Source of the DNA: a virus
IMG/VR virus record: IMGVR_UViG_3300042452_000984
Coordinates: 1-64,000 of that record
Direction: 5' to 3' (one strand)
DNA: 64,000 nt
Shown: in pieces, positions 1,974 to 24,193 of the stretch
Layout: each line of letters begins with the position of its first letter
How positions within the stretch are numbered: the stretch's first letter is position 1
Program-made: the position numbers and the translations under genes
Notes under the pieces: model-generated
What the model was told of the DNA's origin: nothing
The model's database searches: none
What the model saw: only the letters and a program-made list of their open reading frames with translations

Positions 1974-4900
1974 CGCCAAAGTCTAAACGCAAGCCATTGC
2001 GCCCCAAGGGTGTGTTTGATCTGGAGATCCAGCCCGGCGATCGCCTGTACTTTGTCGGCGATGACTGCGAGCTGTACCGCGGCGAGCAATGCTTGGGGCG
2101 CTACGGCTACCACTGGGAGGATGAGCTAACCAAGGCGGTACAGCGCACCCAACTAGCCCTGGTGGAGGGCGAAGAAAAGCCGGTCAAAGGTCCTAATGTC
2201 ACCAGCATGAAGCCGGAGGCAAAGGCACCCAGGGCACCCAAGGCACCGCCTAAACCTGAGGAACAACCCCAAACCGGCGAACGATGGATTACTATCCACC
2301 CCAATAAGGACAACCCGGACTCCTACGTCAGGGTAAAGATCCGTCAGCACTCAGACGGCACCGCCAGTGTCATTGCAGGTGCCGGGGGCAAACTGAACCA
2401 GTTGCGCCTGACCAAGCTACGCAGCCCGGAGGAATGGAAAGAACGCGCCGCTGAACGCAAGCAAAAACGCCTGGAGAAAGAAGAAAAGCGCCGGGCGGAG
2501 CTAAGTGAGGGCGATCGCCAAGCAGAAGACGACGAAACCACCCAAGCCCGGGAGTACCACCGGGGCGAACGGCACCGTAATGCCAAGGCTACTTTAGACG
2601 CCTACCAGGAGGCAGGGCTAGACCACGGGCTAACGCCGGAGCACCTAGCCGCCCTCGATACCCCCGCCAGCGCTGACACCGACCCGGAGGAAGCTAAGCA
2701 GGTTGAAGCCTTGGCACGAGAGGCGGTCCAAAAGGCGGCAACTATCCAAAAAGCCTACGAACAACGCCTTGTCCAAGACCACGATGCCCGGGCCGCCGCC
2801 AAGCTTGGTGATGAATCCTTGGAGGGGCTAGGCAACCCCCTGCAGCAGGACATTGACCATAGCGCCTATGGCACCGACGGCAATACCATCTCTAACCTCA
2901 CCCAACTGCCTAATGGGCAATGGCTAGTCACCGGCGGCGATAAGGCGGATGCTACCTTTGACACCTGGCAGGAGGCGGCTAAGTATCACCTGGGTAATGT
3001 CAACGAGTACGACGGCACCGCCGGCGATCGCAGCCAGCCCGATGATTTCTATAACCCGAAGCTATGGGTGGCTAACCCGGATGGCGTTGACTTCTCCCCC
3101 CAACTAGCTGGGCAGATGGCAGCCCTGGCCCTGCAGCGCAAAGAGATTGATCGCTCTGATAAAGCAGCCGGTAAGGCTATCAAAAAGAAAATGCCATGGA
3201 AGCGAGAACAGGGGTTTGACATTGGTGGGGTCAGCGGCATCGACGACCAAGCCGCGATCGCTCAGTTGGACCAGGATGCCAAAACCATCGAGGATGCCCT
3301 CACCCACGGCAAGCTATTGGATATGGCGGGGCTGTTGGACCCCCAAGCGATGGCCAAACACCTGCAGACCGGTGGCATGGCCCAACTTGGGGAAATCGCC
3401 TCTGACGTGCTCAAAGTTGCCCAGGTTGATCCGGCAATCATCGCCCAGATGGGCCACGATGAAGCGGCCAAGCTGATTGCCTACCAGATCCGTCAGGCGG
3501 TGGGGGATAGGGAGTATCAGGCGATCGCCGCAGCCCAGGCGGCCCACCACGGCCAATGGTCCACCGAGTACGCTAACCAAGTGATTGCCGAAAATCAACC
3601 CCGCCTGGACGCCCTGCGCGACATCCACCGCCGTATGCAGGAAATCGAAGCGGCCAAGGACGGCGACTATACCCCCGACCAATTGATTGAATTGGATACC
3701 CTCTCCTACCAGTCGGAAACATTGCAGAAGTCGTTGCAGCAATCCATCGGCACCGCCCTGGGGCAATTACAGGCCAGTGCGGCCATGACCCTGGCGCTAG
3801 AGTCTAAGCCCCGTAGTTTGCGCTTTGCCGTCAAGGGTAGCCATGGCGATGTGGCCGACGTGCCCGGGCTATTGTCTACCGATGACAGCCCATCAATCTG
3901 GAGCAGCTACGGACTAACCGCTGAAGACTTTAGCCTGGAGGATGGCCCGGACGGGCAACTGGTATCCATCCAGCCCAGCGGCATGGAAAAGCTTGCCAGC
4001 GCCACCTATAACCCGGAAGACCGGGACGCCTACGAGGACGCGATCGCCATCAAACGCGGTGCCTACGATGAGGACGGGTTCACCCCCGCCGGGTTTGCCT
4101 ATCGGCCTGAGTCCACCTTCACCGATGTGCGGGCCGAGGCACAGCAGTTTGATACCACCTTCAACTACCAGCCGGAGATGGATGATGCCGGTGTGGAGCA
4201 GGCAATTAAACAATACCTGGGTGCCCGGGTTGCCAATGGCGACGATCCGTTGTCAGTACGCCGGGATTTATTTTCGCCGGAGCTTTACCTAAACCTTGGG
4301 CTGAACCAGGATGATGCCCTGCGGGTTAATGGGGCGGTGCAGGCGATGGACCTGAAGCTATTCGGCAAGGATGCCCCCGGGCAAGCCCAGATCCGCAGCG
4401 CCTACCAAGAGCTAGGCGACCAAGCCGCCGCCGCCCAGCGTAGCGCCCGGGCGACCGATGACCTGCAAGCGCTCCACAGCCAAAACCTCAACACCGATAC
4501 CGCCAAGGAAGCCGCCCACCGTGCCCTAGCCGCTATGCCCATGGCAAGGGCTGTCCTCAAGCCCATGGACCAGCTTTCTACCCAGGAACGCAAATACTTG
4601 AGGGACTATGCCATCACCGAAGTGATGGGCGAAACGCTGGAGGCACCAGCCAAGAAAGAAGCTACCCCCGAGGAGGACGTACCTCAGACCGGCTCCCTAT
4701 TCGACCTAGGCAGCTACGACGAACCCGGCGACAAGCCCACCAACGACTACCGCGAACCATCCCAGTGGGATCGGTTTTGCCGCATCATGGGCGGTGAGCA
4801 GAAAGCCTATGATGCCATCCGCGATCGCCTTAAGGGTAATTTCTATAGCCGTTTTGCTAGTGCCTATAGCGCCATCGAAGGCAAGCCATTGCTGACTGGC

Positions 4901-6958
4901 AGCCAAACCCTCACCCATGTAGATCGCTTGGCCGCCGCTAGCCTGCCGCCAGCGGAGCGGGATGAACTACTGGCCCACCTGCGATCGCTGGACCAGTCCG
5001 AAATGGCTCAAGCCCGTAACCGCCAGGGGGGTAAGTTTGCCGTTGAGATGGATGACTGGCTGGACAAGTATCACGAACTAAAGGGCAAGGACCGGCAGCT
5101 AGGGCTACTCACCACCGAGACAGAACGGCAGGGCGTCGATAATACTCAATGGCAACGCACCACCCTAGGCACCCAGGCGGAGCAGGACTTAAACGATGCC
5201 CTCCAAAGCGTCCTGCCGGGCTTTGAGCAAGTCAACTCAGCGGTAAACATCTACCCCGAAGTACGCTGGAATGGTGGCTTTGTCGCCCATCAGCGCGGGC
5301 TAAAGCTACTAGAACGCCAAAAGAAGATCGGCATGCACTATAGTGCTGGATCTGGAAAAACTGCGGGAATGCTCGGTGCTTTCACCCATTTGCAAAACCA
5401 GGGTAAAGTCACTCGCACCCTGGTAGCGGTGCCCTCCGGCATTCTGGGGCAGGCGGTGGGGGAATGTGCCACCTTCCTAGAACCTGGCAAATACAATTAC
5501 TCCGCCAATATTGGCTGGGACCGGGAGAAGCGCATCGAGGCACTGCGTAACCCCGATATGCACCTCCATTTTACCACCCGGGAATCCCTAGCCGGTGATC
5601 TATTGCACCTGGTGGAAAAACACACTGGCATCGGGGCGGAGGACTTTCAAAATACCGATGCTCGCAGTGAGGACGATCGCCGATCGCTCCTCCTAACCGC
5701 CCTACAGCAAGAAGGCATCGACCCCAGCAGCCTGCTATTCAGTGTTGATGAAGCCCACGACCTATCCCGCCGTCAGGGTGTATCACCGTCCCGGCGATCG
5801 CTGGTCCTTGATGCCCTGGCCCACCATAGCGCCTACCATATCAGCGCCACCGGCACGCCCTTAAAGAATGATGCTTCTGAGATTGCCGACTTCCTGCAAA
5901 AGGTGGGGGCACCTGAAGTAAAGGACGTTGGCGCCTTTATGGCCCGCTATGGCAAAAATACCCAGGCCAGCCGCCGTAGCTTACAGCGATTGGTAGCTAA
6001 GTACGCCTACGCGATCGCCGTCAAGCCTACCACCAAGGACGGGCAGGAGTTATCCATGCGGATGGAGCAGCCTAAGATCGCCCTGTCTGACCACCAAAAG
6101 ACTCAGCGGGCAGAACTACTAAAGCACTACGACACCCTACAAGCCTGGCGGGAGCAGGAACTACCCAAGATAATGGCGGCTAAGCGAGAGCGGGGCGATA
6201 ACTCACCCCTCAATGCCAAAGACCTTGCCCATGCCTGGGAGGATGAGGGCGTTAGAGCCGCGATCGCCGCCCTATCGCCTGAGTCCTACGGCAAGCTAGA
6301 CGATGCCACCAAGCAAGCCAAGGCAGGCGGGCAATTGCTAGGCGCCTCCGCGCTTAAGTACGCCGCCCTATCGCGGCTCTACCACCAGACTGACTACGCC
6401 AACAACGGCAAGGCGCAGCACGTCGTTAAAATGGCCGCCCAAGCCAAGGCAGGCGGTAAACCCATGGTGATCTTTGCCGCCTCCGCCCAGGCCGCCCAGA
6501 TGTTGCGGAACCAGCTTGCCAAGGAGGGGCACCGGGTTGGCTATATCGACGGCAACCTAGGGCCAGAGGAGAAGGACAAAGAACGCCTACGGTTCTCCCC
6601 TGTTGCGGACGAACAGGCGGAGACCGACATTCTAGTGACCACCGACGCCGCCCAGACCGGGCTTAACCTGCAACGGGGTAAGTTACTAGTCCACTACGAT
6701 ATTCCCCTTACCCAAAAATCATGGGACCAGCGCTCAGCCCGTATCTACCGCCGGGGCCAGACTGAGGACGTTGACGTTCATACTTTGGTCGCTGATGCCC
6801 CGGAGGACGCGATCGCCCTGGCCCGGATGCAGCGCAAAGGTAGTGACAGCGAACTATTCCAGGGTGCTGATGCCACCCAGGGCCATGCTGAACTACTAGA
6901 CGATACTGGACTAGCCGCCGCGATCGCGGAGTTTATGCAAGAGGATGATCCGGGTTGA
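1961..6958 (+). CDS. Large polyvalent protein with a C-terminal SNF2/SF2 helicase (DarB-like role)
   Basis: Motifs YSAGSGKT (I), VDEAH (II), SATGTP (III), TDAAQTGLNLQ (V) and QRSARIYRRGQ (VI). N-terminal LTKA and a WITIHPN...GAGGKLN module typical of phage head-associated proteins. Confidence 0.85.
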   Translation: MRTLTPKSKRKPLRPKGVFDLEIQPGDRLYFVGDDCELYRGEQCLGRYGYHWEDELTKAVQRTQLALVEGEEKPVKGPNVTSMKPEAKAPRAPKAPPKPEEQPQTGERWITIHPNKDNPDSYVRVKIRQHSDGTASVIAGAGGKLNQLRLTKLRSPEEWKERAAERKQKRLEKEEKRRAELSEGDRQAEDDETTQAREYHRGERHRNAKATLDAYQEAGLDHGLTPEHLAALDTPASADTDPEEAKQVEALAREAVQKAATIQKAYEQRLVQDHDARAAAKLGDESLEGLGNPLQQDIDHSAYGTDGNTISNLTQLPNGQWLVTGGDKADATFDTWQEAAKYHLGNVNEYDGTAGDRSQPDDFYNPKLWVANPDGVDFSPQLAGQMAALALQRKEIDRSDKAAGKAIKKKMPWKREQGFDIGGVSGIDDQAAIAQLDQDAKTIEDALTHGKLLDMAGLLDPQAMAKHLQTGGMAQLGEIASDVLKVAQVDPAIIAQMGHDEAAKLIAYQIRQAVGDREYQAIAAAQAAHHGQWSTEYANQVIAENQPRLDALRDIHRRMQEIEAAKDGDYTPDQLIELDTLSYQSETLQKSLQQSIGTALGQLQASAAMTLALESKPRSLRFAVKGSHGDVADVPGLLSTDDSPSIWSSYGLTAEDFSLEDGPDGQLVSIQPSGMEKLASATYNPEDRDAYEDAIAIKRGAYDEDGFTPAGFAYRPESTFTDVRAEAQQFDTTFNYQPEMDDAGVEQAIKQYLGARVANGDDPLSVRRDLFSPELYLNLGLNQDDALRVNGAVQAMDLKLFGKDAPGQAQIRSAYQELGDQAAAAQRSARATDDLQALHSQNLNTDTAKEAAHRALAAMPMARAVLKPMDQLSTQERKYLRDYAITEVMGETLEAPAKKEATPEEDVPQTGSLFDLGSYDEPGDKPTNDYREPSQWDRFCRIMGGEQKAYDAIRDRLKGNFYSRFASAYSAIEGKPLLTGSQTLTHVDRLAAASLPPAERDELLAHLRSLDQSEMAQARNRQGGKFAVEMDDWLDKYHELKGKDRQLGLLTTETERQGVDNTQWQRTTLGTQAEQDLNDALQSVLPGFEQVNSAVNIYPEVRWNGGFVAHQRGLKLLERQKKIGMHYSAGSGKTAGMLGAFTHLQNQGKVTRTLVAVPSGILGQAVGECATFLEPGKYNYSANIGWDREKRIEALRNPDMHLHFTTRESLAGDLLHLVEKHTGIGAEDFQNTDARSEDDRRSLLLTALQQEGIDPSSLLFSVDEAHDLSRRQGVSPSRRSLVLDALAHHSAYHISATGTPLKNDASEIADFLQKVGAPEVKDVGAFMARYGKNTQASRRSLQRLVAKYAYAIAVKPTTKDGQELSMRMEQPKIALSDHQKTQRAELLKHYDTLQAWREQELPKIMAAKRERGDNSPLNAKDLAHAWEDEGVRAAIAALSPESYGKLDDATKQAKAGGQLLGASALKYAALSRLYHQTDYANNGKAQHVVKMAAQAKAGGKPMVIFAASAQAAQMLRNQLAKEGHRVGYIDGNLGPEEKDKERLRFSPVADEQAETDILVTTDAAQTGLNLQRGKLLVHYDIPLTQKSWDQRSARIYRRGQTEDVDVHTLVADAPEDAIALARMQRKGSDSELFQGADATQGHAELLDDTGLAAAIAEFMQEDDPG

Positions 6959-8697: not shown

Positions 8698-8767
8698 CAT
8701 TTCTCCGTAGCAAAAACGCTATAGACGTGTTAAAAATACACTTGTGTTTTATTTTTGCTACACGCCT

Positions 8768-9880
8768 ATGCCTGGCATTCGCACTTTATACCCCCGTGGC
8801 AGTAAAGAGGACGGTCTAGGCGTATTCCTAGCCAAAATGGGCAAGCACAAGCTTCTCACCCCTGCCCAGGAGATAGAGCTAGGGCGCCAAGTGCAGGAGG
8901 GGCTATGGGCGGCGGCAACGGTCCTAAGCGATCGCGATCGCCGTCAGCCACTACAAGAAGATTTTGAACGCCAGCACCGTAGCGAACACGGTGAACTACC
9001 AACCCAGGTGGAAATTGACACCTACTTTGACGAGGCACGGCAGCGGTTAATTGATACCTACCGCCAGGGCCACCCGGAGGCGACAGAGGCGGAGATGCGA
9101 CGCCATTTTGAACGGGTAGCCCGGCAGGGTAAGAAAGCTTGCGACCAGATGGTGATTCGTAACCTGCGCCTAGTAGTGAGTGTGGCCCACAAATATTCCA
9201 AGCACGGGCTAGAGCTAGGGGATTTAATCCAGGAGGGCGTCGTTGGATTAGTGCGAGGGGTGGAAAAGTTTGACCCGGCCAAGGGCTATAAATTTTCGAC
9301 CTATGCCTACTGGTGGATTCGTCAGGCGATCACCCGGGCCATCAGCAACAAGGCAAAGTCGATCCGCCTACCGATCCACGTCGTTGACGTACTCAATAAG
9401 GTGCGCCGCTATGGGCATGTTTTCCGGGCTCAGCACGGACGCTACCCAAGCGATCGCGAAGTGGCCGAGCATTTCTCCTCCCGCAATGGTGTCTCCGTCG
9501 ATGAATGGATGAGGCGGCTACAGCAGTTCAAGGCGATGAATATCGCGCCGACTAGCCTGGACCATGTGGTGGATAACGGCGATCGCGCTAAAAGCACAAT
9601 CCACGACCTTGTAGGGGGTATCGATGATAGTTCTGTCAGTTTGTTTGGAGATCAGGTTATCGAGGAATTGGGCGCCGCTGTGGTGGGCTTGCCGACCCGG
9701 GAGCGGCAGGTGGTGGAGCTAAAGTACGGGCTGCTCAGCGGCACACCCAAATCCCTCAGTGAAGTAGCCAGGGAGATGGATGCACCACTGGCGACGGTAC
9801 GAACGATCCACGTCAGGGCATTACGACGATTGTCTAGGGAGCGGCGAGGCTTGCGATCGCTGCTCGAAGGACTGGAGTGA
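8768..9880 (+). CDS. RpoD-family (group 2-like) RNA polymerase sigma factor
   Basis: Region 1.2 [11 protein letters not shown]; region 2 [18 protein letters not shown] and [26 protein letters not shown]; region 4 HTH. Confidence 0.93.
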
Positions 9881-17485: not shown

Positions 17486-18180
17486 CCCGCCTCCCGTCGC
17501 CATCTAGCCTCTAACAATTCCCGATAGCCGATCGCATCAATCAGCACCCGTGGCTCATTCTGTAGGTTCCATTCCGCATCATCTAGCCCGGGGCAACGGT
17601 AGCGGTAGATCGTCTCGCAGGTGATATTCTTCTCCCGCAGGTATAGGTCCTCCGGGTTGGCGGGGTGGGTAAGGTGAATCAGGCGTTTAACGCTCATCGC
17701 CTCACCGGTGGGTTCGCTCAAGGGTAGGGCACCCTCTAGGGGCACCTGAAGCACATTGGCGCCATAGACAACGGTTTGATGGGCGATGATGTCCCCCTGC
17801 ACCGTGGCACGAATAATCCGCAGCCGTACCGATCGCCGTAGTGACTGCAATTCATCAATCAACTCCCGACGCCGATCGCGATCGTCACCCGCCTCCTCCA
17901 TCAATTTGATAAACCGCGCCTGGTAGCCTAGTAGCTTATGGTTGGCCCAGGGCGGCACCGGCAGGCACCGGTCTAAGCGAATGCAACGCTTAGGCGTCTC
18001 TGGCGGTAGCTCCGGTTGTCGTTGACGGCGGTATGTCTGTACCAGACGATCAATAGACTCGTCTAAAATATGGACGGTGGCATCAAGCTCGACGCTAGCG
18101 CCCTGGCCCGCTTTGATGCCTAGCCTATCTAAGGTATTGAAGGCAGACTGTAAATTATCATGGGGGATCGTGATGGCCAT
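17482..18180 (-). CDS. Hypothetical protein; start likely ATG 18180
   Basis: Long ORF; its upstream extension overlaps the opposite-strand gene. Confidence 0.55.
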   Translation of the reverse strand: MAITIPHDNLQSAFNTLDRLGIKAGQGASVELDATVHILDESIDRLVQTYRRQRQPELPPETPKRCIRLDRCLPVPPWANHKLLGYQARFIKLMEEAGDDRDRRRELIDELQSLRRSVRLRIIRATVQGDIIAHQTVVYGANVLQVPLEGALPLSEPTGEAMSVKRLIHLTHPANPEDLYLREKNITCETIYRYRCPGLDDAEWNLQNEPRVLIDAIGYRELLEARWRREAG

Positions 18181-18421
18181 AGTAGACTTTTCCCAGGTGG
18201 CGGCAGCAGCCTTTAGCGATATGCTGATCCTACGCGATCGCGTCCTGCACGAACGCGAAACCTTCCGCAATGAGTCTGCCAACTGGCAAGAGCTAACCAA
18301 GCTCGATGAACCCGCCCTCCAGGACCGGCTGATGCGCTGTGAAATCCTAAACCGCACCGAGGCGTTGATCCGCACCACAGACCTACGCTGTCACCCCCTG
18401 GAGGTGCTGAACTGTGATTAA
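18173..18421 (+). CDS. Hypothetical protein
   Basis: First gene of a coupled run leading to MuF. Confidence 0.5.
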   Translation: MAIVDFSQVAAAAFSDMLILRDRVLHERETFRNESANWQELTKLDEPALQDRLMRCEILNRTEALIRTTDLRCHPLEVLNCD

Positions 18422-18626
18422 TTGGCGTTCCTACCTAGAAGGCGTCCGGGATGCGCTGTGCGCCTTTGATAAGCCTACCGCGTTCGATATTCTGGAACTA
18501 GCGATGCGCTTTAACGAGACCGGCGATCGCGCTGACATTTACCAAGCCTGGCGCTCCATGTTTCCCCATTGGCGACCAACACGGGATATGGAGCGTCAAA
18601 GCTTCCAGCGTTGGGGCGTCGAATAA
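18414..18626 (+). CDS. Small hypothetical protein
   Basis: Coupled to MuF by TAATG. Confidence 0.55.
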   Translation: MINWRSYLEGVRDALCAFDKPTAFDILELAMRFNETGDRADIYQAWRSMFPHWRPTRDMERQSFQRWGVE

Positions 18627-19657
18627 TGTGGTCCCCCCTTGCCCCCGATGACTTCAGCCAGTTTGAACCGACCGATATTATCGCGTTCCTGGATTGGTTT
18701 GAGCGACAGTACGAGGACGCGATCGCGCTTGGCATTGTCGATGGCTATGTGGAGGGGGTAACCGAACCCTATTTGGTGAATATCTCCACCGGCCAACCGA
18801 TACCGGAGTGGGTAGCGACCGTCCTCAAGGTACGAGAGGTGGCCCAGTGGGCGTACCAACAACAGGAACCGATTGCCGCCCGCCTGCGCCGCAACTTGGC
18901 CGCCATCATCCCGGATGACCAGGTGGCAGGCTACGCCGCCCGGTTCAGGGTGACACCGCAGGACATTGCTAACGTCCCCCCGGCGGTGAGGGAAAGCTTT
19001 AACCAGGGCGCTCGCTTTTCATTGGACTGGGTGAAACGCCTATCCGATGACGCCCGGGGCATGATGCGCGATGTGCTGGCGGTGGAGTCGCTAAAGAACC
19101 GTAACCCCGCCGGGGCCGTACCCATCCTTGAAAACCTATTGCGCCGCGATCTAATCGCCCAGGAGCTAGGCGCTGACCCTAGCGCTGTCACCCCGGCCAT
19201 GGTGCAGGAGTGGTTGATTAATACCGAGTCACGGTTGTTAAATGCGATCGCGTCCCGGGCGCAGACCATCTCCCGCACCGAATCTATGCGGATGATGAAC
19301 CTAGGCATCCTGGCCACGCTAGAGGCAAGCGAACAACGGTTGGCCTACGTCATGCCCCACGCGGGCTCCTGCGAGCATTGCCGCCGGTTGATTGACGGTC
19401 GCGTTTTTACAATAGAGGTGCTAAAGCGCAACCTATTTGCTAATTTTGGCGTTCGCCCTGATGCTTGGGTAGCCAGCCTACCTCAGCACCCTAACTGTCG
19501 CCATTCGGCTGGCAAGATACCGGTTAAATTCAGGCGCAAGCTTGTCAACCTGGACATCCCACCAGAGGGGCTGGTGCTGCAATACTACGGCTTGCCTGGC
19601 GGTAAAACATCCATGGATGCCTTGGAACTGCCAGAGGTGGAATGGCTAGAGCCCTAG
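18626..19657 (+). CDS. Phage minor head/morphogenesis protein (MuF / SPP1 gp7-like)
   Basis: RAQTISRTE...N.G, SCEHCRRLIDGRVF and PQHPNCRH. Confidence 0.8.
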   Translation: MWSPLAPDDFSQFEPTDIIAFLDWFERQYEDAIALGIVDGYVEGVTEPYLVNISTGQPIPEWVATVLKVREVAQWAYQQQEPIAARLRRNLAAIIPDDQVAGYAARFRVTPQDIANVPPAVRESFNQGARFSLDWVKRLSDDARGMMRDVLAVESLKNRNPAGAVPILENLLRRDLIAQELGADPSAVTPAMVQEWLINTESRLLNAIASRAQTISRTESMRMMNLGILATLEASEQRLAYVMPHAGSCEHCRRLIDGRVFTIEVLKRNLFANFGVRPDAWVASLPQHPNCRHSAGKIPVKFRRKLVNLDIPPEGLVLQYYGLPGGKTSMDALELPEVEWLEP

Positions 19658-19896
19658 CTAAGTCCCAGGATCGTCAGCCTGTCTTGATCGTAATCCTCTA
19701 ATACTAGAACGCACTCCGCTCCATTGCAGATGAAGTTGAGCGTGATCTGGGTATCTACATGACTCTTTAGCCATCGGGCTGCCACCGCCCCGCAGGCGCC
19801 ATCCACGCCCTTAAAACGCAAGCGATCGCCATCGCTGACAATGTACAGCGCATTTTCTCCGGGAACATACCGAAAACTTTTGAGCGTCATGTGCAT
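19654..19896 (-). CDS. Small hypothetical protein
   Basis: 80-aa ORF with an AGAAGGGG RBS-like sequence upstream on the minus strand. Confidence 0.5.
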   Translation of the reverse strand: MHMTLKSFRYVPGENALYIVSDGDRLRFKGVDGACGAVAARWLKSHVDTQITLNFICNGAECVLVLEDYDQDRLTILGLS

Positions 19897-19941
19897 GGCT
19901 AGCCCCTTCTCCGTGAAATCACTAGATTATTGCATATTTGC

Positions 19942-19970
19942 TTGACCATTGCTTATTTGCAATATACTAT
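19942..19970 (+). promoter_or_regulatory. Sigma70-type promoter flanked and overlapped by GCWTATTTGC boxes
   Basis: TTGACC-17 nt-TACTAT; boxes at 19932 and 19951. Confidence 0.75.
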
Positions 19971-20034
19971 TTGAAATGTGAGCCACGGGGTTCACGACAC
20001 TCAAAAGACCACTCAAAAGACCACGGAGAAGACT

Positions 20035-20343
20035 ATGAAAAGCTTTATTGTTGCCACCCTGATCGCTACCCTGCTCCCCACCGCTGCCATGGCCACCACC
20101 GGGATGCCCGGGCGAGGCGGGGATGGGCACTGCCCCATCAAGGAGTTGGCCACAGACCCCGACTGCGCCCGCGAGGGCGCCCAATGGCGGGGCACTGGCC
20201 GGGAGCAAGCCAAGTCTAAGCGGGACGAATTCCCCCAGTGCCGAGCTAGCGGTGGCGGTCAGCAGACCGTCTACACCTGCAAGGGTAACCCCCGCAATGA
20301 GTTCCCTGGCGATCGCCCCCGGCAACCCCGCCACCTTGGCTAA
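20035..20343 (+). CDS. Secreted small protein with a signal peptide and an RGTGR motif (PatX-like)
   Basis: MKSFIVATLIATLLPTAAMA signal peptide; RGTGR at 20188-20202; four Cys; GGAG RBS. Confidence 0.6.
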   Translation: MKSFIVATLIATLLPTAAMATTGMPGRGGDGHCPIKELATDPDCAREGAQWRGTGREQAKSKRDEFPQCRASGGGQQTVYTCKGNPRNEFPGDRPRQPRHLG

Positions 20344-20410
20344 TTGACTGACCCTTTGGGGCTGGCTTCGGCTGGCCCCCATTTCGTTTATTTAGGAGAA
20401 CCAGGCAACT

Positions 20411-21181
20411 ATGGCAGACATTGATCCAAATTTGGCGATCGCACTCGCGTTAGAGGAGATCGCGGCATCCTTGAAGGCGATTGCGCTATCGGCAATACCC
20501 AAAAGTACTCAGCCCCTAGGCTTCCAGGCGGACGCCGGGCGGCCAGAGTTTATCTTTGCCAACCTTGTCAAAGGGAATGGCGATGGCTGGTATCGGCTAC
20601 TGGAAAATAACCAACAGGAAACCATGCCCCCTGCGTTCTGGGGTTTGGTGAAGGATTTGCGGTTTGTCCAGCGGGAACGGCGAGGCGAAGACGTTACCAA
20701 ACTCGACTTGGTGATGGAGGGTGAAGACGGCAAGACTTATATTTTCGAGTCTGGCGCCCAGTCATTTTTTAGCCGCTCCCTACTGACCGCCTTAAGCCTA
20801 TGCCCTGTAGCTGACTTACAGCAACCCATTCGATTGTTTAGCTACATTTCAGAGCTACAGACCGGCGACAAAACTCTAAACGTCAGCATCACCTCGCAAT
20901 CCGGCAAGCTCCAGGCTAGCTGGAAGGCGGATGACGACTGGCGGGCGATCGCTACCGAGGCAAAAACCAGGGTTTACAAAGCCTTGGGCAAAGAAGCGCC
21001 AGCACCGGAACCCACCACCCAACCAGCGGCACCGCCACCAACCCGCAATAGTCCCCCGGCAGGTAATCCACCTGGCGGAGCCCGCGATCGCATTGCCCAA
21101 CGTGCCAACGCTAAGCCCGTCGCCGCTAAAGTGACAGACTCGCGGGCGGCAACTGATTGGGATGAAGAGATACCGTTCTAG
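20411..21181 (+). CDS. Putative single-stranded DNA-binding protein
   Basis: Beta-rich N-terminus, Pro-rich linker and an acidic tail DWDEEIPF like SSB C-termini; AGGAG RBS. Confidence 0.6.
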   Translation: MADIDPNLAIALALEEIAASLKAIALSAIPKSTQPLGFQADAGRPEFIFANLVKGNGDGWYRLLENNQQETMPPAFWGLVKDLRFVQRERRGEDVTKLDLVMEGEDGKTYIFESGAQSFFSRSLLTALSLCPVADLQQPIRLFSYISELQTGDKTLNVSITSQSGKLQASWKADDDWRAIATEAKTRVYKALGKEAPAPEPTTQPAAPPPTRNSPPAGNPPGGARDRIAQRANAKPVAAKVTDSRAATDWDEEIPF

Positions 21182-21189
21182 GAGTAGTT

Positions 21190-21387
21190 ATGAACCAACC
21201 TATTCAGCTATCGACTGAGGCAGAGTTTGCGATCGCCCAATTTCAGCGATCGCTAGAAAGCCTGGAGTTTACCCGGGAAAACTTCAACGAACTCAAGACC
21301 ATCGCCCTTGGCTTAAAGCGTCTGGAGGCGGCCCAACGGGCGTTTCTGGTAGCTCAGGTAAAAGAGTCCTGGGGGAGGCCATTATGA
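21190..21387 (+). CDS. nblA: NblA-like phycobilisome degradation protein
   Basis: MNQPIQLSTEAEFAIAQF...VKESWG parallels cyanobacterial NblA (MNQPIELSLEQQFSIRSF...LKHQWG); 65 aa. Confidence 0.7.
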   Translation: MNQPIQLSTEAEFAIAQFQRSLESLEFTRENFNELKTIALGLKRLEAAQRAFLVAQVKESWGRPL

Positions 21388-21617
21388 CCAACCTCAACCG
21401 CCTAGTTGACTTAATGCGACAAGCCCGACAGCGGGCAGTATCGGAGCGATCGCTAGTCATGCCCACTAGCTACTCATCGCGCCGTGGCGTTTCCCATGCT
21501 TTTCTCTGTTTGAACTGCAAGTTCTACAACCCTACCACCCAAGCTTACTTGCGGTGTGCGGTTCACCCTGAAGGGCCGAAGAGCGATACCTTCTGCACTG
21601 ACAAGGAGGAGCGATGA
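21384..21617 (+). CDS. DUF6464-like Cys-rich small protein
   Basis: CLNCKFYN...YLRCAVHPEGP...C. Confidence 0.6.
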   Translation: MTNLNRLVDLMRQARQRAVSERSLVMPTSYSSRRGVSHAFLCLNCKFYNPTTQAYLRCAVHPEGPKSDTFCTDKEER

Positions 21618-22156
21618 GGAGACTGTTATTGCTCGACCACACCGCCCTGGTGCAGCACCGGAATGGCCCCGGTGTCTACATCAACAACCGGGACAATATG
21701 ACATTGGTTCCAGGCATTCTAGGCGCCCTGGAGCCCTACGTTGACAGGAACTACAACGTCGCCATCTGTAGCAACCAGGGCGGCGTCGAGAAAGGCCACC
21801 TAGCGTTCGGTGCTTGCCAAAACCTATTCGGTGAAATGTTCAAGCTGTCCAACTATTGGGTTCAGGCCATTTGGTTTTGCCCCCTAGCCCGGGGCAGCAC
21901 CGGCAGTTATGCCATTCAAATGACGATGCCCTACGAACCCAAGACCTATACCAAATGCCAAAAGTATGCCACCACCGGCTACCGGATGCCCCAGGCGGGC
22001 ATGATTTTGGCCGCCATGGACTGGTTTGGGGTAACGCCTGAGCAGACCACCATGGTGGGCTTACAGCCGGAGGCTTACTATGCCGCCGCTGATGCAGGCG
22101 TCAAAAAGTTTGTCCACAGTTCGTACTTTGTTGAAAAAGCGGGAGTATTGCAATGA
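21614..22156 (+). CDS. HAD-IIIA (GmhB/PNKP-like) fold protein with degenerate catalytic motifs
   Basis: SNQGGV, R.P.AGMIL and MVG...AA..AGV are retained; DxD, Lys and GD..D appear substituted. Confidence 0.7.
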   Translation: MRRLLLLDHTALVQHRNGPGVYINNRDNMTLVPGILGALEPYVDRNYNVAICSNQGGVEKGHLAFGACQNLFGEMFKLSNYWVQAIWFCPLARGSTGSYAIQMTMPYEPKTYTKCQKYATTGYRMPQAGMILAAMDWFGVTPEQTTMVGLQPEAYYAAADAGVKKFVHSSYFVEKAGVLQ

Positions 22157-23271
22157 AATTTACAGTAGATGCGGGTGATCTGGCAGAGGCGATCGCGCTG
22201 TGCGATCGCGCTATCCCTAAGCGCCCTAGCCGCCCTATCCTGGGCCACATGCTAATGCAGCTAGACAATGGCAGCCTTACCCTAAAAGGGTTTGACGAGG
22301 CGCTAGGGATTAGCTTCTCGTTGCCAGTGGATATGGAGCAATCCGGTGATTGTTGCATATCCCCAACCTACCTAAAGCCCATCCTGGAGCGCCTATCCGG
22401 GCAGGTGGCCTTAGACCTGCAATACCCTGTCCTGGTGCTAACCACCCTGGGCGCCGAGTACCGGATTAACACCCTCCTGGCTGAGGACTACCCCAACTTG
22501 CCCGAGGTGGACGGTACCCCGGTGGAGTTGTCTATCTCGTCAGAGGAACTACGAGCCGCGATCGCGGCTACGGTGTTCTGCGCCAGTACTGACGAAAGCA
22601 AGCAGGTACTTACCGGCGTTCACTTCTCCGTTACCCCCGGCGAAGGGGGGGAGGCAGGGGTGATGGAGTTAGCGGCCACCGATGGCCATCGGATGATCGC
22701 CTACCCGCTACCCGGTAGCGTTGTCATCCCCGATGACTATCGCCCCGTCACCCTGCCCGGGAAGAGCCTGCGGGAACTGCTAACCGTCCTGAAGGGCGAG
22801 GGTGCCGTCAAGCTGACGTTTGATGACGTGTCTGTGCGTGCCCTATGCGGGGACACCGAGCTCTATAGCCGGGTTATCGAGGGGCAATACCCCAACTACC
22901 GGCAGCTATTCCCCAAGGTGTTCTCTAAGGTGGCGACCTGCGATCGCAAGCCATTCTTAGCCGCCCTCGATCGCACCTTGGTGGTGGCCGGTGAAAACAA
23001 GGACATCGTTAAGCTGGAGTTTGACACCACTGGGCTGGTGATGAGTGCAGAGGCAAAAGAAGCGGCCAAAGCTCAGGAACATGTCGAGGGCGTAACCTGT
23101 AGCGAACCCATCACCCTAGCGGGGAACGGTAAGTACATCAAGGAGGCGCTAACCAATGCGATCGTGGGTGAAACCTTCACTATGGAAATGAATAAGCCAG
23201 AAAGCCCAGTGGTTTTTACAGATGGGTCCCCGGCGACCTATTTAATGATGCCCATTCAGATTAGGGGTTAA
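22153..23271 (+). CDS. dnaN: DNA polymerase III beta sliding clamp
   Basis: 372 aa; RPSRPIL, STDESKQVLTGV, AATDGHR, IEGQYPNYRQLFP and YLMMPIQI. Confidence 0.93.
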   Translation: MKFTVDAGDLAEAIALCDRAIPKRPSRPILGHMLMQLDNGSLTLKGFDEALGISFSLPVDMEQSGDCCISPTYLKPILERLSGQVALDLQYPVLVLTTLGAEYRINTLLAEDYPNLPEVDGTPVELSISSEELRAAIAATVFCASTDESKQVLTGVHFSVTPGEGGEAGVMELAATDGHRMIAYPLPGSVVIPDDYRPVTLPGKSLRELLTVLKGEGAVKLTFDDVSVRALCGDTELYSRVIEGQYPNYRQLFPKVFSKVATCDRKPFLAALDRTLVVAGENKDIVKLEFDTTGLVMSAEAKEAAKAQEHVEGVTCSEPITLAGNGKYIKEALTNAIVGETFTMEMNKPESPVVFTDGSPATYLMMPIQIRG

Positions 23272-23273
23272 CC

Positions 23274-23453
23274 ATGGACCTACAGCCCGGTTACGCGATC
23301 GCCTATCGTCCATCCACGGAAGAGCCCTGGCAGCAAGCGTCTGTCTTTGCGGTCATTGGCGACAAGGTGATGGTTAAGTTGCCCCTGGGCGGCAACACGT
23401 CCAGAATCGTCACGGTGGACATTGACAGTGGTTTGATAGGGCCACCGTTCTGA
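23274..23453 (+). CDS. Small hypothetical protein (59 aa, MDLQPGYAIAYRP...)
   Basis: Translated by hand; TGATG coupling to the next gene. Confidence 0.55.
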   Translation: MDLQPGYAIAYRPSTEEPWQQASVFAVIGDKVMVKLPLGGNTSRIVTVDIDSGLIGPPF

Positions 23454-24193
23454 TGCAGGAGTTTTACATAGGCTGGCATCAGCCCGTCAACGGCCTGTCT
23501 GGCTGCGGGGATTTTCCCCGGTGCATGGTGTCAGTCAATCGACTTCTAAGGCGTCGCTCTCCCTTCCCGGTTCAGTCCTGGATATTGGATAGCGGCGCTT
23601 TTACTCGCATTGCTGGCGGACAAGGGCACCTGCCATTAGAAGACTATGCCAAAGAGATCCGGCGATGGGCAAAAAACGGCAACCTTGTGGCAGCTGTGGC
23701 ACAGGACTATATGTGTGAACCATTTATCCTTGGCAAGACCGGGCTAACAATCCAAGACCACCAACGGCTAACCATAGAGAACTACGATCGCCTGCTTGCC
23801 CTAAATACCGGCGTCTATATCATGCCAGTATTACAGGGCTACTCTCCCGCTGACTACGTTAGACACCTGCACGATTACGGCGATCGCTTGCACCATGGAC
23901 AATGGGTAGGGGTGGGTTCTGTCTGCAAGCGAAACAGCAACCCTGGGGCAATTGAAGCCGTCTTGATGGCGATTAAGGCGGCCCGCCCCGATCTGAGGTT
24001 GCACGGGTTTGGCGTTAAGAAGACCGCCCTAGAATCTTCAATTGTGTGGGACTTACTTTACTCAGCAGACAGCCAAGCCCATAGCTTTGCAGCACGGATG
24101 GAGAACCGAAACGCCAATTGCCCAAAGGTTGCGCTTAATTACGCCAAAGGCATCGGCAGCCCCTTGCAGGCATCCATATTTTCAGCGTTCTGA
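23453..24193 (+). CDS. DpdA-like / tRNA-guanine transglycosylase-like DNA deazaguanine-inserting enzyme
   Basis: ILDSGAF, AQDYMCEP, PVLQG, VGVGSVCKR, LHGFGVK and SADS motifs of the TGT fold. Confidence 0.75.
   Translation: MQEFYIGWHQPVNGLSGCGDFPRCMVSVNRLLRRRSPFPVQSWILDSGAFTRIAGGQGHLPLEDYAKEIRRWAKNGNLVAAVAQDYMCEPFILGKTGLTIQDHQRLTIENYDRLLALNTGVYIMPVLQGYSPADYVRHLHDYGDRLHHGQWVGVGSVCKRNSNPGAIEAVLMAIKAARPDLRLHGFGVKKTALESSIVWDLLYSADSQAHSFAARMENRNANCPKVALNYAKGIGSPLQASIFSAF

Follow-up and report, generated by a model that had tools for sequence, protein, structure and literature searches.

A phage-borne family of small, putatively exported proteins with an optional RG[ST]GR motif resembling that of HetR inhibitors

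The first 64 kb (64,000 nucleotides; hereafter the window) of the 82.6-kb linear IMG/VR record IMGVR_UViG_3300042452_000984, estimated to be 78% complete, contain a gene at positions 20035-20343 on the + strand whose product, P0001 (102 amino acids, aa), carries a predicted Sec-type signal peptide and the pentapeptide RGTGR, a sequence shared with the peptide inhibitors of the cyanobacterial regulator HetR. The gene belongs to a phage-borne, mosaic family of small, predicted exported proteins, in which the cassette with the pentapeptide is, in our reading, a short linear motif under selection that some members add to an exported scaffold. The gene is best explained as a moron-like unit with transcription of its own, in a cyanomyovirus that is possibly temperate, and we propose tentatively that its product functionally mimics the HetR inhibitor PatX/PatS, with a probability that we judge somewhat short of even.

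The RGTGR cassette and its carrier protein

The open reading frame (ORF) runs from an ATG at 20035 to a TAA at 20341-20343. The WRGTGR cassette (residues 51-56) occupies 20185-20202 on the + strand, with RGTGR itself (residues 52-56; codons CGG GGC ACT GGC CGG) at 20188-20202, preceded by Trp and followed by 46 residues. Both the ORF and the pentapeptide had been noticed in an earlier reading of the letters without database searches (the sequence-only reading), and both were confirmed. That reading had also allowed for a chance origin of a motif of five residues, and a single occurrence could be due to chance across a large scan: when P0001 was shuffled 200,000 times the motif arose in 359 cases, the record's ORFs of 100 aa or more (33,644 aa in all) should contain it about 0.15 times by chance, and six-frame translation of the record yielded two matches in total, the other one in an antisense frame. 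However, the behaviour of the motif in homologues of P0001 lifts it above chance.

A homologous-protein search recovered 44 relatives of P0001, ranging from 88 to 126 aa. RG[ST]GR was carried by 19 of these first 45 proteins and by 21 of all 50 family proteins, as [WY]RG[ST]GR at one fixed position, always directly after the core segment DPDCAREGxQ. The residue before the motif was W in 17 carriers and Y in four, the variable position was Thr in 11 and Ser in 10, and an acidic spacer (VD.., IG.., ID.. or EQ) usually followed, while decayed or degenerate versions were found in none of the 50 proteins. The motif was present in all 11 proteins with the leader typical of the window's own lineage (group A, see below) and in the N-truncated P0048, compared with only 9 of the 38 proteins with the other leader. 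Among the 19 full-length carriers that were aligned (P0006, with a frameshifted tail, and P0038, with an aberrant tail, were left out), pairwise identity ranged from 34 to 99% (median 53%), and 18 of 82 mature positions were invariant, including R52, G53, G55 and R56 as well as the Cys/Asp/Pro core. Across the six loci with DNA, the motif codons differed at three points, two of them synonymous (GGC/GGA) and one a Thr-to-Ser replacement. On a tree of 46 rows (P0006, P0038, P0049 and P0050 left out), the motif label required four changes, compared with a mean of 15 after shuffling; the tree is poorly resolved, with 21 of 43 inner branches open, and its starred branches are compatible with a single origin of the motif.

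Two alleles with altered sequence at or after the cassette were also recovered. In P0005 the cassette is partly duplicated in tandem (WRGTGRGTGR). P0006 (103 aa) is the same as P0001 to just past the motif and then continues in an alternative frame (tail ...PATLAN), as in the +2-frame ORF at 20123-20347 of the window, keeping the leader, core and motif and losing the C-terminal half; it represents either a natural frameshift or a sequencing error.

P0001 looks exported, as the sequence-only reading had held. Residues 1-20 (MKSF...AAMA; 20035-20094, + strand) were called as a Sec-type signal peptide by our own heuristic: the leader has Lys2, a 12-residue window from residue 3 with a mean Kyte-Doolittle value of 2.40, and A-M-A at residues 18-20, after which cleavage is predicted. 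Leaders of this type are seen in 48 of the 50 family proteins, all but the N-truncated P0048 and the odd P0049. The mature part, of about 82 aa, is rich in Gly, Pro, Arg and Asp and contains four Cys. In the alignment of 45 sequences, the family core (residues 29-50, GDGHCP...DPDCAREGAQ; 20119-20184, + strand) includes the invariant residues G29, D30, G31, C33, P34, D41, P42, D43 and C44. The AlphaFold2 model built from this alignment (pLDDT 49.7, pTM 0.11) shows almost no secondary structure, which fits a largely disordered mature chain, a poor model being no proof of disorder. P0001 had no usable match in Pfam (E<=0.01), PHROGs, NCBIfam, PDB sequences or the ESM Atlas (best score 0.85, under the 0.9 lead level), and no match by tblastn against 50,697 phage records.

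Mosaic locus and control region

An exhaustive search of representatives yielded only 13 family clusters at 50% identity. The relatives that could be located lie on seven viral contigs (29-93 kb) and 11 metagenome contigs, and the sole match among 185,579 species genomes was a 2.8-kb contig (L009) binned in a Limisphaerales metagenome-assembled genome (MAG). A Limisphaerales host was considered and rejected; the contig was read as mis-binned, the MAG being 0.9 Mb in size, with two small phage-like contigs and no junction to host DNA. Because matches occur almost only on viral or metagenomic contigs, the family is essentially phage-borne.

The family is present in at least two unrelated phage lineages. 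The window, L002, L003 and L006 form group A, a set of syntenic loci rich in HIP1 sites (GCGATCGC), and L004, L005, L007, L008 and L009 form group B, which has no HIP1. The group B sliding clamp is 32-34% identical to that of the window, and the window's capsid protein had no match in any of the four group B records searched; L015, L016 and L020 have yet other flanks. All four HIP1-rich loci of the window's lineage are motif-positive, and all 11 metagenome loci, two of them with HIP1, are without the motif. A link between HIP1 and the motif was rejected, since L015 and L020 have HIP1 without the motif and L008 and L009 have the motif without HIP1.

Comparison of the group A loci revealed an upstream 362-aa gene of 97-99.7% identity and a downstream 256-aa gene of 74-97% identity, whereas the small gene between them shares 63% (L003) or 42% (L006) identity with that of the window. 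The same pattern of a hypervariable small gene between similar flanks repeats in group B, and the C-terminal halves of the family behave as interchangeable modules. The contrast between conserved flanks and a divergent small gene marks the locus as a hot spot of allelic exchange. In addition, a DNA contig of sequencing run X6 is like the window up to 20012, at the start of the gene, and then continues with unlike letters that include an ATG; it may represent another allele from the same sample. Within a few kb of the small gene, L005 (group B) encodes a Cas_CT1975 protein (28-1029, +; type I-E Cas7-like, E 3.5e-45), a tyrosine integrase (3588-4592, -) and a small sigma-70 region-2 protein (4563-5150, +), the first of which could be a phage-borne CRISPR-Cas component.

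The gene looks like an autonomous unit, on the strength of a conserved promoter-like region upstream and a terminator-like hairpin downstream. The promoter-like region (19922-19977, + strand) has a -35 hexamer TTGACC at 19942-19947 and a -10 hexamer TACTAT at 19965-19970, a sigma-70-like arrangement with 17-nt spacing (19942-19970) that matches at 9 of 12 positions. Such a site was found once against 0.8 expected in shuffles and is not significant alone, but positions 19925-19995 are almost invariant in three related phage loci (L002, L003 and L006), whereas the coding DNA on both sides diverges. Tandem 19-nt boxes (19922-19959, + strand; repeat search) surround the promoter-like site, and TATTTG[CA]AAT boxes (19954-19977, + strand) overlap the promoter-like region. 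An imperfect inverted repeat, GTGAGCCACGGGGTTCAC (19978-19995, + strand), lies just 3' of the -10 hexamer; it was found by eye, is not in the repeat-search list, is invariant in all four group A sequences and is a possible operator or 5' leader hairpin. The leader also contains two tandem copies of the 12-nt repeat CACTCAAAAGAC (19998-20021, + strand; repeat search). The operator-like boxes that had been described are present as tandem boxes and an inverted repeat; CACTCAAAAGAC is unlikely to be an essential operator, because its copy number differs among relatives, with one full unit in L006 and one unit plus a diverged remnant in L003. By direct reading of the sequence, a GGAG ribosome-binding site (20025-20028, + strand) has the ATG 6 nt downstream. 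The terminator-like hairpin (20358-20389, + strand) comprises a stem at 20358-20379 of nine pairs, seven of them G-C, and a T-rich tail to 20389. Inspection of 19897-20034 by eye showed neither the DIF1 motif TCCGGA (PMC7761841) nor anything like the HetR site GAGGGG...CCCCTC (PMC4649674). A divergent ORF of 80 aa (19657-19896, - strand), which has no family match and is 63% identical in L003, shares the conserved intergenic region and could encode a regulator using this common control region.

Phage identity and probable host

Sequence content identifies the window as DNA of an uncultured cyanomyovirus, and the cyanophage origin proposed by the sequence-only reading stands. HIP1 occurs 135 times in the 64 kb, about 2.1 per kb, where 1.08 occurrences are expected, and an excess of HIP1 is a hallmark of cyanobacterial DNA. 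CGATCG is 10-fold over-represented in the window, and in the group B loci TGGATCCA and GCTAGC are mildly over-represented. Genes recognized through PHROGs and Pfam encode a sigma factor, a primase, a sliding clamp, a TGT-like enzyme, an HK97-type major head protein, a tail sheath, a baseplate wedge, a portal and methyltransferases, a set that indicates a myovirus. The sigma factor (8744-9880, +; phrog_351, E 1.2e-66) is full-length and group-2-like, and its nearest relatives are plasmid-borne cyanobacterial RpoD/SigA proteins (about 33-36% identity), with Synechococcus phages S-CBS1 and S-CBS3 also among them. Outside the window, a serine recombinase of 446 aa, recognized by its Resolvase N-terminal domain (L014:2226-3563, -, corresponding to 66226-67563 of the record sequence G000), suggests that the phage is possibly temperate.

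The host could not be taken from isolated relatives, since no close isolated phage was found: blastn of 18000-24000 against isolated phages gave no match, and the tail sheath matched only Bacillus SPO1-like phages among them, at about 28-30% identity. At least 70% of the words sampled from 18500-23300 were present in 20 lake-water or freshwater metagenome runs from separate studies, three possible source runs being counted apart.

A filamentous, HetR-bearing host is likely, judging from the affinities of structural genes. Six of the 88 matches of the window's major capsid protein bear organism names; the four cyanobacterial ones, 71-74% identical, are a Coleofasciculaceae MAG, Leptolyngbya sp. 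FACHB-36, Leptothoe spongobia and Desertifilum. Among the 120 matches listed for the group B terminase, 11 are organism-named and all 11 are cyanobacteria (52-60% identity); the seven genus names among the matches listed are Leptolyngbya (three times), Trichocoleus (twice), Oculatella and Thermoleptolyngbya. Some of the named terminase matches lie on contigs of 1-5 Mb, which points to integrated prophages. Leptolyngbya, Trichocoleus, Oculatella, Thermoleptolyngbya, Desertifilum and the like are thin filamentous forms. The filamentous cyanobacterial host suggested by the sequence-only reading is thereby favoured by the nearest named capsid and terminase relatives, which are mostly filamentous, but these affinities amount to only 52-74% identity. 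hetR and patX are reported for nearly every filamentous cyanobacterium and are neighbours in Leptolyngbya BL0902 (PMC11298460). In a survey of 474 genomes, patP was present in 86%, hetR and patX were found mainly in Nostocales and Oscillatoriales, and a pattern of hetR plus patP only occurred in, for example, a Leptolyngbya (PMC12756182).

Possible mimicry of HetR inhibitors and its alternatives

Under the proposed mimicry, the pre-protein would be exported to the periplasm through its Sec-type signal peptide, and the mature disordered chain would act as a carrier displaying the optional [WY]RG[ST]GR short linear motif. Periplasmic proteases, with the cyanobacterium-wide PatX peptidase PatP as a candidate, might free a hexapeptide-sized fragment, which would re-enter the producer and its neighbour cells, like HRGTGR from PatX and ERGSGR from PatS, bind the hood domain of HetR and switch off DNA binding. 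An infected or lysogenic cell could in this manner damp HetR-dependent programmes along the filament, presumably to the benefit of the phage; these programmes may be heterocyst commitment in Nostocales, or whatever HetR and PatX do in thin filaments without heterocysts, a matter still described as open (PMC11298460; PMC12756182).

Known inhibitors offer several parallels. RGSGR is found in PatS, HetN and most PatX proteins, and RGTGR in some PatX (PMC7761841). Nostoc PatX is a 56-aa protein with a Sec signal whose export is required; it is cut by PatP, and HRGTGR binds HetR (PMC12756182). In the structure of the HetR hood with PatS6, binding uses main-chain bonds, both Arg residues and Ser, and PatS-6 (ERGSGR), a hexapeptide with one extra N-terminal residue, is the best HetR binder (PMC4649674). 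P0001 resembles PatX (Asl2332 of PCC 7120) in its small size, its predicted Sec-type leader and its RG[ST]GR motif, with the Thr form in both; the probable host range, filamentous cyanobacteria, fits, and the disordered model of the phage protein would fit a pro-peptide. It differs from PatX in having no detectable sequence similarity, in its length (102 aa versus 56 aa), and in an internal motif preceded by W or Y, whereas the PatX motif is preceded by His and lies at or near the C-terminus. Further differences are that the phage gene is phage-encoded and not beside hetR, patX being a chromosomal gene of HetR-containing cyanobacteria that is often linked to hetR, that the motif is optional within the phage family, and that the family has a conserved four-Cys core, a feature not mentioned in the descriptions of PatX cited here. 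A HetR (Peptidase_S48) domain was absent from the ten genes scanned around the small gene. A PF03574 search of the record gave no match, but the controls were likewise without a match, so that this result says little.

P0001 shares the pentapeptide core of PatS, which is 17 aa long and probably processed in the cytoplasm (PMC12756182). However, PatS proteins (13-17 aa) are cytoplasmic, end in RGSGR and have no signal peptide, in contrast to a 102-aa protein with an internal motif and a hydrophobic leader. HetN, a putative ketoacyl reductase (PMC4649674), contains an internal ERGSGR, indicating that an embedded motif can be active (PMC7761841). The motif is internal in both HetN and P0001; unlike HetN, P0001 has no Pfam family at E<=0.01, and its model is disordered, with no ketoacyl-reductase fold. 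Among phage genes, P0001 is comparable with moron or lysogenic-conversion genes and with the phage exploitation of host signals (arbitrium AimP, phage-borne quorum-sensing genes) in its promoter-like and terminator-like flanks within a block of phage genes, its small, predicted exported product and its hypervariability from one near-identical phage to the next. It would differ from all of these in its presumed target, which would not be a phage receptor but a regulator of host development in cells next to the infected one in a multicellular filament. A full-text literature search, with subscription journals mostly outside its reach, found no description of a phage-encoded RG[ST]GR peptide.

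Several observations weigh against mimicry of HetR inhibitors. Signal-less full-length PatX showed no HetR binding (PMC12756182), and the hood touches PatS6 at its two ends, namely at the free amino group of the N-terminus and in the region of the C-terminal carboxylate (PMC4649674). Since the phage motif is internal (residues 52-56 of 102) and the hood contacts both ends, two specific cuts would be needed, and nothing seen here shows such cuts. PatX effects in Leptolyngbya BL0902 looked largely HetR-independent (PMC11298460). Relationship by descent to PatX, as implied by the label PatX-like in the sequence-only reading, is not supported: none of the 45 family members matched PatX in NCBIfam (E<=10; four unrelated weak families only), searching the 82.6-kb record in six frames with NF047413 (heterocyst_PatX; family cut-off 30 bits) returned nothing at E<=10, and the motif is internal. 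There was no evidence of expression either, RNA run X24 (share 0.05, 85% likeness) having no cover at 18983-20431; its cover fell on parts of the neighbouring genes of a 90-95% relative, and the uncovered stretch proves nothing. As regards the host, the two remaining named capsid matches are MAGs of non-cyanobacterial phyla, one 2.8-kb family copy is binned in the Limisphaerales MAG, the second-lineage (group B) loci lack any HIP1, and the affinities rest on structural genes that are only 52-74% identical.

The conservation of RG[ST]GR among homologues, a check named in the sequence-only reading, is divided: 21 of 50 proteins have the motif at one position, in S and T forms and without decay, but 29 of 50 are without it, by a clean deletion (..AREGAQ-TLSKSS..). 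Members of the same lineage differ in this respect (L007 versus L008), and the HIP1-bearing L015 and L020 are also without the motif. The motif is dispensable, given its absence from 29 of 50 relatives, including some of the same lineage. This distribution bears on another explanation, to which we assign a substantial minority probability: P0001 may serve the phage in the periplasm in a way that has nothing to do with HetR, for example by excluding superinfecting phages, masking a receptor, or inhibiting a protease or an enzyme of the cell wall, with the conserved Cys/Asp/Pro core as the active part. The motif with its acidic spacer would then be an optional loop, a linker or a site of proteolysis whose match to the HetR-inhibitor pattern is only coincidental. 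The core GDGxCP...DPDC together with R63, P67, P91 and P95 is kept in all members, and this universality, set beside the missing motif in 29 of 50, argues for a basic family function independent of the motif; the scaffold core must, on this sequence pattern, have some role other than that of the motif. The hypervariability of the locus (42-63% identity, compared with 97-99.7% and 74-97% in the flanks) is typical of host-interface or exclusion genes, and such a role would also agree with promoter-like and terminator-like elements of its own, with the lack of PatX homology and with the pentapeptide matches that are expected now and then across many windows. However, a loop or linker of a disordered protein is unlikely to keep four invariant residues, W/Y and S/T across 34-99% identity without intermediates, the S/T variation is that of the natural HetR inhibitors (PMC7761841), and no exclusion or inhibitor family was matched in Pfam, PHROGs, NCBIfam, PDB sequences or the Atlas.

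The cassette might alternatively be a neutral, recently spread indel whose conservation reflects recombination among co-occurring phages, which we consider improbable. Its 18 nt are identical in the window and in L008 and L009, loci that otherwise diverge from the window and have other codons beside the cassette, indicating that lateral spread adds to its uniformity, and part of the apparent conservation may therefore be recent lateral spread. The mosaic family, its poorly resolved tree and the compatibility of the starred branches with a single motif origin are also in keeping with a neutral indel. On the other hand, very divergent carriers on long branches exist (P0024 and P0046, with YRGSGR), W/Y, S/T and synonymous Gly codons vary, implying that there was time to change while the pattern was never lost, and the cassette is as invariant as the Cys/Asp core.

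It is likewise improbable that the peptide acts on the host PatX pathway in another way, either as a decoy or competitor of PatP or on the HetR-independent PatX target suggested for Leptolyngbya. PatP is near-ubiquitous in cyanobacteria and periplasmic, with native substrates outside Nostocales described as unknown (PMC12756182), the PatX effects in Leptolyngbya BL0902 mentioned above would suit such a target (PMC11298460), and the motif is embedded and displayed on a predicted exported, probably disordered chain. However, RG[ST]GR is not known to belong to the sequence that PatP recognizes, and the single cut that has been mapped is 27 residues upstream of the motif (PMC12756182).

The sequence-only reading had also proposed an arbitrium-like signal, that is, a pro-peptide for communication between phages. 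A small, predicted exported precursor in a possibly temperate phage (serine recombinase, L014:2226-3563) and integrated relatives of the group B terminase would be in line with this proposal. In arbitrium systems, AimP is a pro-peptide with a C-terminal mature peptide, the cognate receptor gene is adjacent, and the peptide differs between phages. By contrast, no receptor-like family was found in the ten genes scanned around the small gene, the candidate mature peptide is internal and not C-terminal, the motif is missing in 29 of 50 alleles, and the peptide is identical across unrelated lineages, whereas communication codes diverge between phages. The proposal thus lacks support and is very improbable.

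Returning to mimicry of HetR inhibitors, a bolder form of it, which we regard as less likely than not, is that phages of filamentous cyanobacteria have repeatedly captured the host morphogen code. Exported from an infected or lysogenic cell, the carrier would release its RG[ST]GR peptide into the periplasm that the filament shares and so silence HetR in uninfected neighbours, blocking differentiation, necridium formation or filament break-up and leaving the virus a chain of susceptible cells with coupled metabolism. The cassette polymorphism would reflect a pay-off that depends on host state. In this form, a virus would be steering the multicellular development of bacteria by imitating a morphogen. 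HetR and its RG[ST]GR inhibitors form the textbook example of Turing-type patterning in bacteria. If mimicry were true, P0001, which carries the peptide on a phage-encoded protein not homologous to PatX, would be the first viral player in the HetR circuit, and its family would constitute a natural experiment on the essential part of PatX, namely export plus a hexapeptide. It would also provide a handle on the unexplained function in thin filaments such as those of Leptolyngbya, and would bear on the viral shaping of blooms and mats.

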